From Escherichia coli (GTDB taxonomy: Bacteria > Pseudomonadota > Gammaproteobacteria > Enterobacterales > Enterobacteriaceae): a stretch of DNA of 64,000 nt. Shown here one piece after another: positions 233-62,995 of this stretch; position 1 is the first letter of the stretch, and each line of letters starts with the position of its first letter. A program made the translations under genes and the position numbers. Below the pieces are notes generated by a model that saw only the letters and a list, made by a program, of their open reading frames with translations, did no database searches and was not told where the DNA came from. The stretch lies in assembly GCF_046105845.1 (NCBI RefSeq), contig NZ_CP151004.1; one strand, 5' to 3'.

Positions 233-467
233 CATTTATACTCGTCATACTTCAAGTTGCATGTACTGCGACTCGAATTATTTAGAGTATATAAATATAA
301 AAATCAGGAAATGGCAGACGAATCCAGGGCAAGAAAAAAGAATTAATCCTGGAAAGGTCTGCAAAGAGTCATTGATAAAGGATTTGTCATGATTTACCTC
401 CTTGCAGTTTGTGGAATAAGAAAACGCGCACATACCAGGCGGGTGTTATTTTCATTGCAAGCTGAAT

Positions 468-920
468 TTAATGTTGCGGTTTATATCGCATAGAAAAATT
501 AGTAAACCACGCTCCCCTGCATTCAACGCGCTGCTGCTTAACTGTCTGAAAACCATAACGTTCAAAAAAGGGTTTTGCGGTTATGCTGGCGTCCACCGTA
601 AGTTCGGATTCAGACTTAATCAAAGGTTTTAACAAAGCGCTGGCAACCCCACAGCGGGTGTATTCAGGGTCAACAAATAACATATCGATATAGTGTTCAA
701 TGCGGGAAATAAAACCAACCGATTGTGCATTAATGATCGCAACCCACACTTGTGATTTCGCGAATTTCTCCTTCCAGCGAGATTCGTCAATCTGCGCCCA
801 GGCGGCAATTTGCTGCGGAGAATAGTGCTGACTGGCAGTCATCGTAACCGCTCGAAGGAAAATAGCGCATAGTTGCTGAAAATCGCCAGGCTGATAGTTT
901 CTTATTTGTATGTTATTCAT
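468..920 (-). CDS. yafP: GNAT-family N-acetyltransferase YafP
   Basis: 150 aa ORF; last gene of the dinB-yafN-yafO-yafP arrangement; acetyltransferase-like sequence. Confidence 0.85.
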   Translation of the reverse strand: MNNIQIRNYQPGDFQQLCAIFLRAVTMTASQHYSPQQIAAWAQIDESRWKEKFAKSQVWVAIINAQSVGFISRIEHYIDMLFVDPEYTRCGVASALLKPLIKSESELTVDASITAKPFFERYGFQTVKQQRVECRGAWFTNFSMRYKPQH

Positions 921-929
921 AATATAAAT

Positions 930-1328
930 TCAAAAACGCATGCGAAACGCTTCTGCCATTTTTCCAATTTTATGCATTTGGTTGTTATCTCGAGCCAGTT
1001 TATGAGGTTCAGGCTTCAGAATGGCAATGAGCAACCATGCTTGCTCATCAAACGCACCCTGACAATATACCAAATGCGCTTCGTCATTCGTTCTGCTGAA
1101 TTGGCGCAACTGTGGCGGAAATGGATTATTCACATTTGCCAGATGAATATGAGCAACTCGCTCAAATTTGATTAATGGCCAGGTAAACGAGTCGTCGTAG
1201 AGTGCATCGCGACCAAATATATCTGGCAAAACACCGTCACGCTTATAGGAAATAAAATCCGCCGTTAACGCATCAAGTTCCTCTGCTGTAAGTTGCAGGC
1301 GAATAAGTTTTGTTTTGAATACCCGCAT
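930..1328 (-). CDS. yafO: Type II toxin YafO (ribosome-dependent mRNA interferase)
   Basis: 132 aa ORF immediately downstream of yafN (2-bp spacing); position and size as in the dinB operon. Confidence 0.85.
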   Translation of the reverse strand: MRVFKTKLIRLQLTAEELDALTADFISYKRDGVLPDIFGRDALYDDSFTWPLIKFERVAHIHLANVNNPFPPQLRQFSRTNDEAHLVYCQGAFDEQAWLLIAILKPEPHKLARDNNQMHKIGKMAEAFRMRF

Positions 1329-1330
1329 CC

Positions 1331-1624
1331 TTATTCCTTAAAGTCATTGAAATCATCATCCGTCATATCATTAAGATATTGTTCAGCGCGGCGTGTAATT
1401 TCCTCTAATCTTGCAGCACTTGGACGGAAGCGCGCCTTTATGGGCTTTTTCTCCTCTTGTTCAGCAAGCATGTCCATTAACGCTTCGAATGCGCTGGCAC
1501 TTAAGAGATATCCTGCGGGGCGATTATTAGAAAGAACCGCAACCGGTTGATCAATAAAGTATTTAGCTGGGTTTTTACGTAACTCAGTAATATTGACCGA
1601 TTTTTCAGCGAGAATTCGATGCAT
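1331..1624 (-). CDS. yafN: Type II antitoxin YafN (Phd/YefM-like)
   Basis: 97 aa ORF starting MHRILAEKSVNITELRKNPAKYF; antitoxin-before-toxin order with yafO. Confidence 0.85.
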   Translation of the reverse strand: MHRILAEKSVNITELRKNPAKYFIDQPVAVLSNNRPAGYLLSASAFEALMDMLAEQEEKKPIKARFRPSAARLEEITRRAEQYLNDMTDDDFNDFKE

Positions 1625-1675
1625 ACAGTGATCCCCTCATAATAATGCACACCAGAATAGACATAATAGTATACA

Positions 1676-2731
1676 TCATAATCCCAGCACCAGTTGTCTT
1701 TCCATTTGCGGGTCAAGTAACGTCACATGCAGCCCCACCAGACGCACACCGCGCCCGCCACGGCGTTCATCCCAGGTTTTACGCGCAGTGGCGATCAAGT
1801 CAGCTTTATTCAGCCGTGGCCAGACGTGCTCCTGAGTAGTTTGCTGAAAATCATCAAACTTTAATTTCACCCCCTGGCGAGCAATCAGTAAATCAGGTTT
1901 AACCTTTGCCAGGCGGCGTTCAAGTTCCGGGTACAGCCGCTCGATAATCGCTTCACATTCAGACCAGTGATGAATATCTTCCGCCATCGTGCGTTCCACG
2001 CCGACGGATTTTCGCAACCGTTCGCTGTTAACGTCGCGCTCGTCAATCCCCTGACTACGCTCCCACAAAATGCGGCCAAATTTGCCAAAACGTTTGAGCA
2101 GAGTCACCAGATCACACTTTTGCACATCACCGCAGGTCCGCAGCCCCATCGCTTCCAGTTTTGCCGCCGAAACTTTGCCGACGCCGGGAATTTTTGCCAG
2201 CGGTAAGGTTTGCAGAAATGCCGGAACTTCTGCCGGAGTAATCACAAACTGACCGTTGGGTTTATTCATGTCGGAAGCAATTTTGGCGAGAAACTTTACC
2301 GGCGCAACGCCCGCAGATGCCGTCAGTTGCAGCTCGTTAAAGATCGTCTGACGGATTTCCTGGGCGATGAGGGTCGCGGAGCCGTGGCAATGCACACTAT
2401 CGGTGACGTCGAGATAGGCTTCATCCAGTGATAACGGTTCAATGCGCGAGGTGAAGCGCGAGAAAATTTCGCGGATATGATTTGAGGCTTCTTTGTAGGC
2501 GTCAAAGCGCCCTGGAAGCAGCGTGAGATGTGGGCATAATTTGAGTGCCATCCCTGTCGGCATAGCGCTACGTACGCCAAATTTACGCGCGGGATAATTG
2601 GCGGTGCTGATCACCCCCCGACGTTCGCGGCTGCCGCCAATAGCAATAGGGATATCGCGCAGGGCGGGATTGTCGCGCATCTCCACCGCTGCGAAAAAGC
2701 AGTCCATATCCACATGAATGATTTTACGCAT
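1676..2731 (-). CDS. dinB: DNA polymerase IV (Y-family translesion polymerase)
   Basis: 351 aa ORF starting [33 protein letters not shown], the DinB N-terminus. Confidence 0.95.
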
Positions 2732-2745
2732 TGCTCACCTCTCAA

Positions 2746-2765
2746 CACTGGTAAAGTATACAGTG
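2746..2765 (-). promoter_or_regulatory. LexA (SOS) box of the dinB promoter
   Basis: Plus strand cactggtaaagtatacagtg; reverse complement CACTGTATACTTTACCAGTG fits the CTGT-N8-ACAG LexA consensus, about 15 bp upstream of the dinB start. Confidence 0.8.
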
Positions 2766-2801
2766 ATTTCAGGGTTTGAGAAATGCGTAAAGATTCAGCA
2801 T

Positions 2802-3500
2802 CTAGCGCGTTCGCTGCGAATGCACCTGCTGCTTATCCAGCTTTTGCACCAGCGGCTGCACCACTTTATCCCCATGCTGACCAAAGTATTGATACAGCGT
2901 ATCGGACGCACTTTTGGTCAGCACCATAATCTCAATGCGTCGGTTGCCCGCGCTTTGCGGATTTTTCGCGTCCAGCAGCATCTGGTCCGCCATCGCGCTC
3001 ACCTGCATCACTTTATCTTCCGGCATTCCGGCCTCTTCCAGCACCCGACGAGCCGAAAGCGCGCGATCGCCCGAAAGGTTCCAGTTGTTGTAGATATTGT
3101 TTTTGTAGGCCATCGCATCGGTATGCCCGGTAATAATAATTTTGTTATCGAGCGAGTCGAACACTGGCGCGAGCTCCACCAGCAAAGTTTTAAAGAACGG
3201 CATAATCTGTGCGCTGCCGCGTTCAAACATATTGCGGTTCTGGTCATCTTTAATCAGCACGCGCAGTCCCTGGGGAACAATCTCCATCTCCAGATTCGCT
3301 TCCATATGTGCATCACGGGCAATGGTGTTGATACTGGTCGCCAGCTCGCCAAGCTCAGTAGCGGATTTCTTCTTCAGCAGCGCCGTTTTCTCATTGACGT
3401 CACGCGCTTTTTTCTCCGTCTCTTCCGGCACCGCCACGGTGGCAGGTTTTGGCGGATGAGACGGGCTGATTTTATTTAACGGCGACAACCCGCCGCCATT
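2802..3500 (-). pseudogene. lafU: lafU remnant (MotB-like lateral-flagellar motor protein, C-terminal OmpA-like part only)
   Basis: ORF 2802..3692 has an OmpA/MotB C-terminal domain (NWNLSGDRALSARRVLEEAG...NRRIEI) but no N-terminal transmembrane helix; its first ~65 codons are antisense to lfhA, so the real 5' part is missing. Confidence 0.7.
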
Positions 3501-5271
3501 GAAAATCGACTGCCCGTGCAGCGCGGCGATAATGCTTTCACGCTCGGATTTACTGACGCTGTTGACAATCAACTTTATCGTCGTCACCAAAGGGGCCGAG
3601 CGTATTTCCGAGGTTTCTGCCCGCTTTACCTTAGACGCGATGCCCGGTAAACAGATGGCGATTGACGCCGATCTTAACGCTGGGTTGATCAACCAGGCGC
3701 AGGCGCAAACCCGGCGTAAAGATGTTGCCAGCGAGGCCGATTTCTACGGCGCGATGGACGGGGCATCGAAGTTTGTGCGCGGGGACGCCATCGCCGGGAT
3801 GATGATTCTGGCGATCAACCTGATCGGCGGCGTCTGTATCGGCATCTTCAAATACAACCTGAGCGCCGACGCCGCCTTCCAGCAGTATGTGCTGATGACC
3901 ATCGGCGACGGGCTGGTGGCGCAGATCCCGTCCCTGCTGCTCTCCACCGCGGCGGCAATTATCGTCACCCGCGTCAGCGACAATGGCGATATCGCCCATG
4001 ACGTGCGCCACCAGCTGCTGGCAAGCCCGTCGGTGCTCTACACCGCCACCGGGATCATGTTTGTGCTGGCGGTGGTGCCGGGGATGCCGCATCTGCCATT
4101 TTTGCTGTTCAGCGCCCTGCTGGGTTTTACCGGCTGGCGGATGAGCAAACGCCCGCAGGCGGCGGAGGCGGAGGAGAAAAGCCTCGAAACGCTGACCCGC
4201 ACCATCACCGAAACCAGCGAGCAACAGGTCAGTTGGGAGACTATTCCGCTGATCGAACCCATCAGTTTAAGCCTCGGTTACAAACTGGTGGCGCTGGTCG
4301 ATAAAGCGCAGGGTAACCCACTCACCCAGCGTATTCGCGGCGTGCGGCAAGTGATATCCGACGGCAACGGCGTGCTGCTGCCGGAGATCCGTATTCGGGA
4401 AAACTTCCGCCTCAAGCCCAACCAGTACGCCATATTCATCAACGGCATTAAGGCCGATGAAGCGGATATTCCGGCGGATAAACTGATGGCCCTGCCCTCC
4501 AGCGAAACCTACGGCGAGATTGACGGCGTGCTGGGGAACGACCCGGCGTACGGGATGCCGGTCACCTGGATTCAGCCTGCGCAGAAAGCGAAGGCGCTGA
4601 ATATGGGGTATCAGGTGATCGACAGCGCCAGCGTGATTGCCACCCATGTGAACAAGATTGTCCGCAGCTATATTCCTGATTTGTTTAACTATGACGATAT
4701 TACTCAGCTGCATAACCGTTTGTCGTCGATGGCACCGCGACTGGCGGAAGATTTGAGCGCGGCGCTCAATTACAGCCAGTTGCTGAAAGTGTACCGGGCG
4801 CTACTGACTGAAGGCGTTTCCCTACGCGATATCGTCACCATCGCCACCGTGCTGGTCGCCAGTAGCACAGTGACCAAAGATCATATTCTGCTGGCAGCTG
4901 ATGTGCGCCTGGCGCTACGGCGCAGCATTACCCATCCGCTCGTTCGCAAGCAGGAGCTGACGGTGTATACGCTGAATAATGAGCTGGAAAATCTGCTGAC
5001 CAACGTGGTGAATCAGGCGCAACAGGCCGGCAAAGTGATGCTCGACAGCGTGCCGGTGGACCCGAATATGCTTAACCAGTTCCAGAGTACGATGCCACAG
5101 GTGAAGGAGCAGATGAAAGCGGCGGGGAAAGACCCGGTGCTGCTGGTGCCGCCGCAACTGCGTCCATTGCTGGCGCGCTATGCAAGGTTGTTTGCGCCGG
5201 GGCTGCATGTGCTGTCGTATAACGAAGTGCCGGATGAGCTGGAGTTGAAGATTATGGGGGCGCTGAGTTGA
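3499..5271 (+). pseudogene. lfhA: lfhA remnant (FlhA-family export gate protein lacking the N-terminal membrane region)
   Basis: ORF begins inside the FlhA signature (ITKGAERISEVSARFTLDAMPGKQMAIDADLNAG) without the ~130 aa transmembrane N-terminus; C-terminus looks complete. It converges on and overlaps lafU. Confidence 0.75.
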
Positions 5272-5307: not shown

Positions 5308-5703
5308 ATGACGTCAGGGATTGATAAGATGATGAAAACGCGTTTATTAATATCTCAAGCATCGAACATTATCACCATTAAAGGTCAACCAGCCGCAGTG
5401 ACATTTGAAGCCGATATCAACGCATTTCGCGGCAAATTTCTCAATGTAAATGGTTATTGCGACTTTGTAGCGACAAGCATTGAGGCGTTATACCGGGAAG
5501 GTGAAAGTGCGCTGGATGAGTGGATGGCGGATTGTGAAGAGGACGGCATTGCCCCTTTTCGTGAAGAAGAGCAAAAACGCCTGACGCTTCGTGTTCCTCA
5601 TCACATCGATTCACGACTGACCATTGTCGCCAGACAACATTCCATTTCAAAAAATCAGCTCATTGTTGATGTATTAGAACGTGAGTTTTCATCCCAGATG
5701 TAA
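5308..5703 (+). CDS. HicB-like antitoxin-family protein with C-terminal ribbon-helix-helix (no HicA partner seen)
   Basis: 131 aa ORF; C-terminus ...RLTIVARQHSISKNQLIVDVLEREF looks RHH-like; likely start at ATG 5329/5332 after an aggga Shine-Dalgarno. Family assignment is from memory. Confidence 0.5.
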   Translation: MTSGIDKMMKTRLLISQASNIITIKGQPAAVTFEADINAFRGKFLNVNGYCDFVATSIEALYREGESALDEWMADCEEDGIAPFREEEQKRLTLRVPHHIDSRLTIVARQHSISKNQLIVDVLEREFSSQM

Positions 5704-6518: not shown

Positions 6519-6809
6519 AAACTAGCTGAATGAAGGAGAGAATTTTAAAAGGTTGGGGGAGTAAACGGGATTATTAATTGCTTATTTGCATATTAGTTAC
6601 GAGGTTTCATAATCTTAGGAAATAAGTGATACATGCGCTTTTCGGACTAATGAAAACTGCCCCTGTGCTAAATTTGTAAACCCTGCGCCGACAGGCTTGC
6701 GTAAAACTCTTTTGGTGATAATGTGAGCCTTCCAAATCCAGACTATTCCGATTTGGGATCCATTTTGCCGTCCTGGCGTGTGTAACCGTTTTATCAAGGA
6801 ATAAGCAGT

Positions 6810-44517: not shown

Positions 44518-45018
44518 TTAAACGTTCTCCTGCGGCGCAATTTTCGCCAGTTCATCACGCAGTTCTGAACTGAGCGTTGGGTCTTTCAGGATATTTTCCA
44601 GTTCACGGCGAAACGTTGCGTTATCCAGCAGATTGGATTTGAGGTCACGTAATAAATTGCGCATAGCGAGTAATACACGAAGCTGTGGGATATTTTTTGC
44701 TACCTGTTCGGGTTCAAAATCTTTCAGGCTTTTAAATTCAAGCGCGATATTTTGTTCATTACCGCTTCCGCTTAGTGTGTCTTCTACTGTTAAATTAACC
44801 GCAGGCGAAAACTCAGCCATGACACTGTTGAAGTTGTTTTTATTGATATCAATCTTGTCCCGTTCGGACAGCGGACGTTGCTCTTTTCCGTTACTGTAAT
44901 CGCCAACAGCAAGAAGCTTGAGGGGGAGTTCAACTTTCTTTTTAGCATTGCCTGTATGCAGGTCAAGCTTGATATTTACACGAGCGGCGGGAACTTCATT
45001 CTGGAAACTGTCGGCCAT
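44518..45018 (-). CDS. tssB: T6SS contractile sheath small subunit TssB (VipA)
   Basis: About 166 aa from MADSFQNEVPAARVNIKLDL; first gene of the T6SS operon. Confidence 0.9.
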   Translation of the reverse strand: MADSFQNEVPAARVNIKLDLHTGNAKKKVELPLKLLAVGDYSNGKEQRPLSERDKIDINKNNFNSVMAEFSPAVNLTVEDTLSGSGNEQNIALEFKSLKDFEPEQVAKNIPQLRVLLAMRNLLRDLKSNLLDNATFRRELENILKDPTLSSELRDELAKIAPQENV

Positions 45019-49398: not shown

Positions 49399-49475
49399 TG
49401 GCGGAACGGACGGGACTCGAACCCGCGACCCCCTGCGTGACAGGCAGGTATTCTAACCGACTGAACTACCGCTCC
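49399..49475 (-). tRNA. aspV: tRNA-Asp (GUC)
   Basis: Reverse complement reads GGAGCGGTAGTTCAGTCGGTTAGAATACCTGCCTGTCACGCAGGGGGTCGCGGGTTCGAGTCCCGTCCGTTCCGCCA. Confidence 0.97.
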
Positions 49476-57620: not shown

Positions 57621-57697
57621 TGGCGGAACGGACGGGACTCGAACCCGCGACCCCCTGCGTGACAGGCAGGTATTCTAACCGACTGAACTACCGCTCC
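57621..57697 (-). tRNA. aspU: tRNA-Asp (GUC), distal gene of rrnH
   Basis: Identical 77-nt sequence to aspV. Confidence 0.97.
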
Positions 57698-57888
57698 ACC
57701 GAATTCTTTTACAACCACCGGTTTTATGACCGGCTTACTGCTTAATTTGATGCCTGGCAGTTTATGAATCACTTCGTGATTCACCCTTCGGGCCGTCGCT
57801 TCGCAACGTTCAAAAGCTTTCGCTTTTGTCCTACTCTCTTATCGAGTAGTGAACTGCCTCAAAGGTCAGTGCCATTCTTCGTAATTTG

Positions 57889-58008
57889 ATGCCTGGCAGT
57901 TCCCTACTCTCGCATGGGGATACCCCACACTACCATCGGCGCTACGGCGTTTCACTTCTGAGTTCGGCATGGGGTCAGGTGGGACCACCGCGCTACGGCC
58001 GCCAGGCA
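57889..58008 (-). rRNA. rrfH: 5S ribosomal RNA
   Basis: 120 nt; reverse complement matches E. coli 5S (TGCCTGGCGGCCGTAGCGCGGTGGTCCCACCTGACCCCATGCCGAACTCAG...). Confidence 0.97.
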
Positions 58009-58101
58009 AATTCTGTTTCATCAGACCGCTTCTGCGTTCTGAGTTAATCTGTATCAGGCTGAAAATCTTCTCTCAATCCGCCAAAACATCTTCGGCGTTG
58101 T

Positions 58102-61006
<2,905 letters not shown>

Positions 61007-61190
61007 TCACAACCCGAAGATGTTTCTTTCGACTCATCATCGTGTTGCGAAAATTTGAGAGACTCACGAACAACTTTCGTTGTTCAGTGTTTCAATTTTC
61101 AGCTTGATCCAGATTTTTAAAGAGCAAAACTTCGCAGTGAACCTTTGCAGGTACACTCTGAAGTATTTTTTATTTAATCACTACAGATGA

Positions 61191-61266
61191 TGGTGGAGCT
61201 ATGCGGGATCGAACCGCAGACCTCCTGCGTGCAAAGCAGGCGCTCTCCCAGCTGAGCTATAGCCCC
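61191..61266 (-). tRNA. alaV: tRNA-Ala (UGC), 16S-23S spacer
   Basis: Reverse complement reads GGGGCTATAGCTCAGCTGGGAGAGCGCCTGCTTTGCACGCAGGAGGTCTGCGGTTCGATCCCGCATAGCTCCACCA. Confidence 0.97.
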
Positions 61267-61308
61267 ATAACATGTAGTTAAAACCTCTTCAAATTTGCCG
61301 TGCAAATT

Positions 61309-61385
<77 letters not shown>

Positions 61386-61453
61386 GTAGAGGTTTTACTG
61401 CTCATTTTCATCAGACAATCTGTGTGAGCACTGCAAAGTACGCTTCTTTAAGG

Positions 61454-62995
<1,542 letters not shown>

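Follow-up and report, generated by a model that had tools for sequence, protein, structure and literature searches.

A complete dinB-yafN-yafO-yafP operon preceded by a poorly fitting LexA box in Escherichia coli

A four-gene operon and its products

We found dinB, yafN, yafO and yafP complete on the minus strand of the 64-kb stretch of Escherichia coli DNA that was analysed (the window), with a LexA box in front of them and no internal stop or frameshift (Table 1). The segment under study runs from the yafP stop codon at 468 to the far end of the LexA box at 2765, the -35-like hexamer lying just beyond the latter. The 3' end of the box is 14 nt ahead of the dinB ATG, and the two putative promoter hexamers match their consensus at nine of 12 positions with a 16-nt spacer (consensus scan), as they do in K-12. 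A preliminary description of this DNA had proposed an intact operon of these four genes in this order, tightly packed with spacings of 2-9 bp. The gaps are 2 bp between yafN and yafO and 9 bp between yafO and yafP, in agreement with that description, which had given no figure for the 51 bp that separate dinB from yafN. Gene identities and order were also upheld: all four open reading frames are full length and pass the cut-offs of their families, alignment with K-12 disclosed no disruption, all four lengths equal those of K-12, and homologous stretches are labelled dinB, yafN, yafO and yafP in RefSeq. No intrinsic terminator was detected after yafP by a pattern scan of the minus strand below position 468, the folding of the 101-nt region downstream of yafP is no more stable than that of shuffled sequence (z = +1.3), and no Rfam RNA family matched inside the operon. 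We are confident that this locus is the canonical dinB-yafN-yafO-yafP operon of Escherichia, with none of its four genes missing.

Table 1. Coordinates of the genes and candidate regulatory features of the operon, in order of transcription
Feature	Coordinates	Strand	Basis or remark
-35-like hexamer TTCTCA, dinB promoter	2782..2777	-	Consensus scan; putative function, from consensus match
LexA (SOS) box CACTGTATACTTTACCAGTG	2765..2746	-	Core CTG-N10-CAG at 2763..2748
-10-like hexamer TATACT, within LexA box	2760..2755	-	Consensus scan; putative promoter, assigned by consensus match
Shine-Dalgarno region GAGAGGTGAG ahead of dinB ATG	2743..2734	-	Sequence reading
dinB, DNA polymerase IV, 351 aa	2731..1676	-	Pfam, NCBIfam, PDB match
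ATGA repeat 1, over dinB stop codon	1679..1676	-	Sequence
dinB-yafN spacer, 51 bp; site of the proximal YafN-autoregulated yafNO promoter of K-12	1675..1625	-	K-12 comparison
yafN, Phd/YefM-family antitoxin, 97 aa	1624..1331	-	NCBIfam, Pfam
yafO, ribosome-dependent mRNA interferase toxin, 132 aa	1328..930	-	Pfam, NCBIfam
yafP, GNAT-family N-acetyltransferase, 150 aa	920..468	-	Pfam, NCBIfam
ATGA repeat 2, over yafP start codon	920..917	-	Sequence

DinB matches the Pfam IMS family (PF00817, 172.9 bits), exceeds the cut-offs of IMS_HHH, IMS_HHH_1 and IMS_C (PF11798, PF21999, PF11799) and of the NCBIfam equivalog NF002677 (545 bits versus a cut-off of 256), and matches PDB entry 4IR1 (E = 1e-235). 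Residues D8, D103, E104, F13 and Y79 and the C-terminal QLVLGL are all at their K-12 positions; we take D8, D103 and E104 to be the catalytic carboxylates, F13 the steric gate and QLVLGL the beta-clamp-binding motif. There are two amino acid changes relative to K-12, M210T and the conservative Y93F.

The yafN gene is directly upstream of yafO on the same strand. Its product is identical to that of K-12 and well above the cut-off of the equivalog NF007300 (196.7 bits versus 99), with a marginal match to Pfam PF02604 (31.5 versus 29.8). YafO matches PF13957 (132.4 bits) and NF007377 (246.5 bits versus a cut-off of 153), and a sequence search of the PDB returned no solved structure for it. A single residue distinguishes it from its K-12 counterpart (V66 in the window, E66 in K-12), and V66 is also present in six of the seven other intact alleles sampled. 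In K-12, YafO blocks translation via ribosome-dependent mRNA cleavage, and YafN neutralises it and autoregulates the proximal yafNO promoter (PMC2814082); by analogy, the pair in the window would have the same toxin and antitoxin activities.

YafP matches PF13673 (Acetyltransf_10, 71 bits), PF13508 and PF00583 (Acetyltransf_7 and _1) and the equivalog NF007338 (316 bits versus a cut-off of 146), and differs from K-12 YafP at six residues. The allele in the window carries L53F, P67S and R90C. The acetyl-CoA-binding motif A loop of GNAT enzymes is Q/R-x-x-G-x-G/A; the putative loop in the window is T88-R89-C90-G91-V92-A93, in which G91 and A93 are retained, and R90 is found in K-12 and in all other sampled alleles except those of CFSAN018748 and L004.

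Could the operon look intact and be partly non-functional, disabled by these YafP substitutions, by Y93F and M210T in DinB or by changes in the dinB-yafN spacer? YafP evolves fast (dN/dS of 0.23 versus 0.02 for dinB), R90C is within the putative acetyl-CoA-binding loop, and single genes have decayed in other strains (dinB is frameshifted in E23, and codon 66 of yafO is a stop in E. coli 042). However, every open reading frame is full length, the DinB residues that were checked are intact, and YafP still scores more than twice the cut-off of its equivalog model. In addition, the exact YafP protein of the window occurs on at least nine contigs in varied operon contexts, one of them a two-gene operon (L010), and this speaks for maintenance of the allele. 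We therefore consider partial loss of function improbable.

The LexA box and the control of transcription

To score the box, we derived a weight matrix from 17 published K-12 boxes, the dinB box being held out. The box reached 13.3 bits on the operon strand and 13.66 on the plus strand, the latter ranking first in the window ahead of a runner-up site of 10.25 bits. With the same held-out matrix the dinB box is the lowest-scoring of the 18 published K-12 boxes, and 0.22 sites scoring this high are expected per random 64-kb window, so that the motif score alone is only moderately convincing. Both the CTG and CAG triplets are present, but seven of the 20 positions are mismatched to TACTG(TA)5CAGTA, and because of these mismatches a search for the idealised consensus TACTGTATATATATACAGTA, allowing up to three mismatches, returned no match anywhere in the window.

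Such figures are what one might expect if the LexA-like sequence were a chance palindrome and dinB were controlled by other factors only, such as RpoS. That reading is nevertheless highly implausible, because the 70 bp upstream of dinB, LexA box and promoter hexamers included, are identical to K-12 at 70 of 70 positions, and the K-12 dinB box printed in Table 4 of PMC3009722, among the listed SOS boxes, is the same sequence as that in the window. Furthermore, the 16-nt core of the box is invariant in 12 E. coli-type sequences, despite a dS of about 0.18 in dinB, and in two other Escherichia species (it is conserved in E. whittamii and Escherichia sp. E1V33), and it is kept, at 14 of 16 positions, in another genus, Pseudocitrobacter. 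Judged from sequence, the box is genuine, a question settled by its position over the -10 hexamer together with the identity to K-12. In K-12, dinB induction is LexA-dependent (PMC11228462, Table 1), and LexA binding and induction by damage would be expected at the box in the window by extension from the identical K-12 DNA.

The preliminary description had called this a textbook LexA box. It is the authentic dinB operator, but "textbook" is not a fitting word for a box with so many mismatches, a heterology index (HI) of 9.4, which places it among the poorest consensus fits of the classic SOS genes (PMC11228462), and the weakest score of the published set. That description had also suggested a formal motif scan in which a poor score would count against the box; the scan ranked the box at the top of the window and yet came close to such a poor score for a site that is genuine. 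A true SOS operator can score low in a formal scan, which cautions against the use of motif score as the sole test for refutation.

How would the operon be controlled? In overlapping the -10-like hexamer, the box has the arrangement typical of operators at which a repressor acts by occlusion, and in an undamaged cell a LexA dimer on the box would probably cover the dinB -10 hexamer and keep transcription low. Upon DNA damage, RecA-stimulated self-cleavage of LexA would free the promoter, and a single transcript, as experiments in K-12 suggest, would then carry dinB, yafN, yafO and yafP. The products would be the error-prone translesion polymerase Pol IV, a Phd/YefM-type antitoxin with its ribosome-dependent mRNA-cleaving toxin, and a GNAT acetyltransferase whose proposed substrates are genotoxic nitroaromatic compounds. 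Given the poor fit of the box to the consensus, repression of dinB by LexA would be expected to leak, in agreement with the substantial basal level of Pol IV reported in K-12.

The SOS coupling of the operon claimed earlier is supported, since in K-12 LexA control has been established by experiment for the entire transcription unit: induction of yafNO by mitomycin C is abolished by deletion of the dinB promoter (PMC2814082), and YafP is inducible by mitomycin C (PMC3105422). LexA control is only part of the regulation of the toxin-antitoxin pair, though, since K-12 has two promoters, the dinB promoter (PdinB), from which alone SOS induction occurs, and a proximal, Lon-induced yafNO promoter in the 51-bp dinB-yafN spacer (PMC2814082). 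In the window the spacer is identical to that of K-12 at 49 of 51 positions, the two substitutions falling within the proximal promoter region, and its middle is polymorphic between strains. We infer that yafNO is probably not under SOS control alone, given that the spacer holds the second promoter described in K-12, at which YafN would repress and Lon degradation of YafN would relieve repression. A putative LexA box has been mentioned at the proximal promoter (PMC2814082); our matrix gave no positive score there, the best being -5.4 bits in the window and K-12 alike, which agrees with SOS induction from PdinB only.

Variation of the yafN-yafO pair

The four-gene operon is only one among several forms that circulate in E. 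coli. At least 80% of the query is covered in 2,835 of 5,416 matching complete E. coli genomes (~52%), and in the lower-coverage genomes that were sampled dinB is fused directly to yafP, with the junction GGGATTATGAATAAC in L010 and a 4-nt overlap of the dinB and yafP coordinates in L016-L018. Gutierrez et al. proposed that the two-gene form arose by recombination between two ATGA sequences (PMC3105422). In four further loci (L005-L007, L021) a yafO deletion of ~373 bp has spared yafN.

Sequence divergence within Escherichia is much lower in yafNO than in dinB. Mean dS is 0.03-0.09 for yafNO (0.03 for yafO) versus 0.18 for dinB, yafNO is far less diverged than its flanks (Fisher p = 3e-7), and between the window and E. 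whittamii identity is 97.6-98.7% in yafN/yafO, 93.1% in dinB and 91.4% in lafU. It is possible, but in our opinion doubtful, that homologous recombination has recently carried one yafNO allele into deeply diverged dinB/yafP backgrounds and even across species; the published model is one of vertical inheritance of yafN-yafO with repeated loss. Were such a spread true, yafNO would be a selfishly sweeping toxin-antitoxin module within a conserved SOS operon.

A broader question is whether yafN-yafO is a selfish addiction cassette in an older dinB-yafP SOS operon, in which case SOS read-through would be incidental, the pair's own promoter the real control, and there would be no partnership with Pol IV or YafP. 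Consistent with a cassette are its polymorphic presence, with dinB-yafP fusions in the sampled remainder, the toxin-inactivated forms (the yafO stop of 042 and the deletion that leaves yafN), its low divergence, its own promoter (PMC2814082) and the lack of any reported yafNO role in Pol IV-dependent phenotypes (as summarised in PMC3105422). On the other hand, the four-gene order and the LexA box also occur in Pseudocitrobacter, where the genes are similarly diverged from those of the window (77-79% nucleotide identity), which argues for a long-standing association that has been retained. The four-gene form is likewise present in E. fergusonii and was inferred to be ancestral (Gutierrez et al., PMC3105422), and SOS induction of yafNO via PdinB is real in K-12 (PMC2814082). 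Nor were natural plasmid copies found in PLSDB: its 14 matches were mostly F' plasmids of laboratory origin with the K-12 segment, or records of chromosome size that had been deposited as plasmids. One match of 80% identity, CP044308.1 (L020), was set aside as an error-ridden copy of the chromosomal region in which dinB, yafP, pepD and other genes are frameshifted. We consider a selfish cassette rather unlikely, and it would in any case touch only the biological meaning of the operon, its anatomy and regulation being undisputed.

The operon, its LexA control, the second promoter and its variable presence among strains are already known from published work. Consequently, our observations carry little weight as a discovery but are useful for annotating the window, and they indicate that a divergent lineage keeps the complete, apparently functional four-gene form while decayed or fused forms occur in other strains.

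Comparison with known systems

The other type II toxin-antitoxin pair of this part of the K-12 chromosome, dinJ-yafQ, which is ~4.4 kb from dinB and among the SOS-induced mRNA interferases listed in PMC2814082, resembles yafNO in having a ribosome-dependent mRNA interferase toxin with its antitoxin upstream, but it stands alone as a two-gene locus, and its proteins belong to other families. Nothing in the window matches it, and the gap between yafL and dpaA there is just 291 bp.

The two-gene operon of E. coli CFT073, E2348/69 and others has the LexA box, dinB and yafP in common with the window. It is without yafN-yafO, and its dinB stop overlaps the yafP start in ATGA (PMC3105422), whereas the window keeps both ATGA copies with the toxin-antitoxin pair between them.

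The operon of Pseudocitrobacter vendiensis (L023) is, like that in the window, made up of a LexA box (TACTGTATACTTGTCCAGTA), a 351-aa dinB, yafN, a 132-aa yafO and a GNAT gene, with the same 2-bp gap between yafN and yafO. It differs in having 15 bp between yafO and yafP, box flanks that are nearer to the consensus, and a YafP-like protein of 147 aa that is only 55% identical. That this layout of a LexA box and four genes is found in another genus leads to the conclusion that it is old.

The closest operon among complete RefSeq E. coli genomes is 98.0% identical (97.0% over 25 kb), and DNA that is 100% identical over 5,400 bases was located, by exact-protein look-up, in GCA_044249515.1 and in the SRR28309099 assembly. 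Compared with the operon of K-12 MG1655 (b0231-b0234), the window has the same gene order, strand relationship, protein lengths and spacings, an identical LexA box, -35 and -10 hexamers and Shine-Dalgarno region, and the same flanks: upstream the lfhA'/'lafU scar left by the Flag-2 deletion, downstream the remnant ykfJ'. The two operons differ at 77 of 2,334 nucleotides (3.3%), unevenly distributed between dinB (5.1%), yafN (0.3%), yafO (1.3%) and yafP (3.3%), and the four proteins are 96-100% identical to their K-12 counterparts.

Anatomy of the operon and its LexA box

The observation of an SOS-controlled dinB-yafN-yafO-yafP operon was confirmed, and its interpretation holds up, subject to two refinements: the LexA box fits the consensus poorly and yafNO has a second promoter. 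The limits in the preliminary description, 468-2765, coincide precisely with the yafP stop codon and the outer boundary of the LexA box, and its 2-bp and 9-bp gene spacings are correct, the dinB-yafN gap being 51 bp. No convincing candidate for an intrinsic terminator 3' of yafP was found in the window.

Features of the dinB operon, in window coordinates
Feature	Position	Strand	Detail
-35-like hexamer TTCTCA	2782..2777	minus	consensus scan
LexA box CACTGTATACTTTACCAGTG	2765..2746	minus	
-10-like TATACT	2760..2755	minus	within LexA box
Shine-Dalgarno GAGAGGTGAG	2743..2734	minus	
dinB	2731..1676	minus	351 aa
dinB-yafN spacer	1675..1625	minus	51 bp
yafN	1624..1331	minus	97 aa
yafN-yafO gap			2 bp
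yafO	1328..930	minus	132 aa
yafO-yafP gap			9 bp
yafP	920..468	minus	150 aa

All four ORFs are uninterrupted and equal in length to K-12 b0231-b0234. Relative to K-12, DinB carries Y93F and M210T, YafN is unchanged, YafO carries E66V and YafP differs at six amino acids. Each protein exceeds its curated Pfam gathering score and its NCBIfam equivalog cut-off (DinB, 545 against 256; YafN, 197 against 99; YafO, 246 against 153; YafP, 316 against 146). The window DinB retains D8, D103, E104, F13, Y79 and the C-terminal QLVLGL and aligns with solved structures of E. coli Pol IV (E = 1e-235); in other E. coli genomes, RefSeq labels the homologous region dinB, yafN, yafO and yafP. At yafO codon 66 (1131-1133) the window and six of seven other intact sampled alleles encode V, K-12 (L001) encodes E and E. 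coli 042 (L011) has a stop, so that the laboratory K-12 allele is the odd one. The YafP allele of the window (468-920) carries L53F, P67S and R90C, positions that are L, P and R in all sampled sequences except CFSAN018748 and L004; R90C lies within a T-R-R-G-V-A loop that is the putative motif A for acetyl-CoA binding.

The LexA box had been called "textbook", which it is not. Its heterology index of 9.4 lies toward the poor end among classic SOS genes (PMC11228462 Table 1), and because it has seven mismatches to TACTG(TA)5CAGTA, a search of the window allowing up to three returned no match. With a symmetrised weight matrix built from the 17 other boxes of PMC3009722 Table 4, dinB being held out, it ranks lowest of the 18 known boxes, scoring 13.3 bits on the operon strand and 13.66 on the plus strand (the latter served for its ranking in the window scan). 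This is the best score in the 64-kb window (runner-up, 10.25), and first-order Markov random windows would be expected to hold 0.22 chance sites per window scoring as high or higher. Judged by sequence and position, we nevertheless take the box to be authentic, because it lies over the -10 hexamer, because the 25-mer around it is the dinB entry in the K-12 SOS box table (PMC3009722 Table 4), because it is unchanged in 12 E. coli-type sequences whose dinB synonymous sites have diverged by ~18%, and because it is conserved in E. whittamii, Escherichia sp. E1V33 and Pseudocitrobacter vendiensis. The 70 bp from the lafU stop codon to the dinB ATG are the same, base for base, in the window and K-12. 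Elsewhere, the third-ranking matrix site of the window (9.5 bits) is TACTGTAATCGCCAACAGCA at 44892-44911, within an ORF of the type VI secretion region; its CTGT...ACAG ends are perfect, and it has probably arisen by chance.

Two probable promoters for yafNO

The anatomy is read directly from the window and its regulation is carried over from K-12 experiments, from which we infer that LexA on the -10 hexamer would repress the dinB promoter (PdinB) and that DNA damage, through LexA cleavage, would de-repress it. In K-12, lexA dependence of dinB is 6.9-fold (PMC11228462), deletion of the dinB promoter abolishes mitomycin C induction of yafNO mRNA (PMC2814082), and mitomycin C induces YafP-YFP (Gutierrez et al. 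2011; PMC3105422). The claim that the toxin-antitoxin pair is under SOS control is thus correct but incomplete, as yafNO in K-12 also has a promoter of its own, mapped directly upstream of yafN, under autoregulation by YafN and showing Lon-dependent induction by translation inhibition and amino-acid starvation (PMC2814082). A putative LexA-like box there has no role in SOS induction (PMC2814082). The dinB-yafN spacer of the window is identical to that of K-12 at 49 of 51 positions, and the weight-matrix scan found no LexA site of positive score within it.

Operon forms and uneven divergence

Nearly all complete E. coli genomes (5,416 of 5,426) match the region, 2,835 (52%) of them over at least 80% of it; sampled genomes below that threshold cover 69% of it and have only dinB and yafP. 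This reproduces both the 60/40 split and the ATGA-overlap fusion given in PMC3105422. The fusion junction was observed in L010, a two-gene operon with the window's YafP protein, and dinB and yafP overlap by 4 nt in three further fusions (L016, L017 and L018); the window retains both ATGA repeats. A third form, dinB-yafN-yafP with an orphan antitoxin, results from a deletion of ~373 bp (window 931-1303; e.g., L006 3887-4664) that removes nearly all of yafO and keeps yafN in L005-L007, whose DinB is identical to that of the window, and in Escherichia sp. E1V33 (L021). We found no mention of this form in the portion of Gutierrez et al. (2011) available. With dinB frameshifted in strain E23 and yafO an annotated pseudogene in E. 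coli 042, such decayed and reduced forms make intactness a real and non-trivial observation.

Divergence was compared across 468-2801 against L001 (K-12), L009, L011-L018 and L022. The window differs from K-12 at 54 of 1056 sites in dinB but at only 1 of 294 in yafN and 5 of 399 in yafO, and its identity to E. whittamii is 93.1% in dinB and 91.4% in lafU against 97.6% in yafN and 98.7% in yafO (Fisher p = 3e-7 for each contrast). Over 8-12 sequences, divergence changed steeply along the operon: mean dS was 0.18, 0.086, 0.031 and 0.10 for dinB, yafN, yafO and yafP, and dN/dS was 0.02 for dinB and 0.23 for yafP. The yafO-yafP segment differs from that of CFSAN018748 at 1 of 852 nt, and dinB at 41 sites. 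The window's operon is thus a recombinant mosaic. The uneven divergence suggests, as a lead rather than a result since the sample was small and picked to span identity levels, that one yafNO allele spread recently by recombination within Escherichia. Among PLSDB matches no natural plasmid copy of yafNO was found: L020 (CP044308.1, 'plasmid pC27A-3') holds an error-ridden copy of the chromosomal lfhA-lafU-dinB-yafNOP-pepD-gpt region in which most genes are frameshifted, and the record appears to be of low accuracy or misassembled, not a real plasmid copy.

Surroundings and age of the arrangement

No complete RefSeq E. coli genome is more than 98.0% identical to the window over the operon or 97.0% over the first 25 kb, and its opening 5,400 bases match GCA_044249515.1 and the SRR28309099 assembly at 100% identity. 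The flanks resemble K-12: the left end carries a remnant of ykfJ', and the lfhA'/'lafU Flag-2 deletion scar is common to both. At 2802-5271 an N-terminally truncated lafU (2803-3557, minus) adjoins lfhA (3559-5266, plus), as at the lateral-flagella deletion scar of K-12, and 302 nt spanning the junction align to K-12 at 97% identity with no gap. Two K-12 loci are missing. The window contains no match to dinJ-yafQ, which in K-12 lies between dpaA and yafL, where the intergenic gap of the window is only 291 bp (6519-6809), and none to rayT, whose position between lfhA' and yafL is occupied by a solo 131-aa ORF (5308-5703, plus); its product was assigned to the HicB family (PF05534) from the identical contig, with no HicA-sized partner visible beside it. 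Between yafP and the start of ykfJ' (an rtcB remnant) near 225 lies a 15-codon ORF, MTNPLSMTLCRPFQD (390..343, minus), with a strong Shine-Dalgarno AAGGAGGT (403..396); conserved in K-12, where the record has no annotated feature, it may encode a leader peptide of the rtcB-prfH unit. Farther right, a type VI secretion cluster (tssA, tssE, tssF, tssG, tssJ and ImcF-like genes, by homology to strain MEW) sits within ~13800-49475 in a block of large minus-strand ORFs ending near a tRNA-Asp gene (49399-49475), and the right end (57621-62995) carries a complete rRNA operon (5S, 23S, tRNA-Ala, tRNA-Ile, 16S and a second tRNA-Asp).

The dinB-yafNOP system is already known. A scan of species-representative genomes with a DNA pattern for the yafN/yafO junction gave three matches. 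In Pseudocitrobacter vendiensis a LexA box (TACTGTATACTTGTCCAGTA) is followed by dinB (351 aa), yafN, yafO (132 aa, 2 bp from yafN) and a GNAT gene (147 aa), with nucleotide identities to the window of 79% in dinB, 78% in yafN and 77% in yafO, which makes the LexA-controlled four-gene layout older than the genus Escherichia. This agrees with the inference of PMC3105422 that the four-gene form is ancestral, and extends it.
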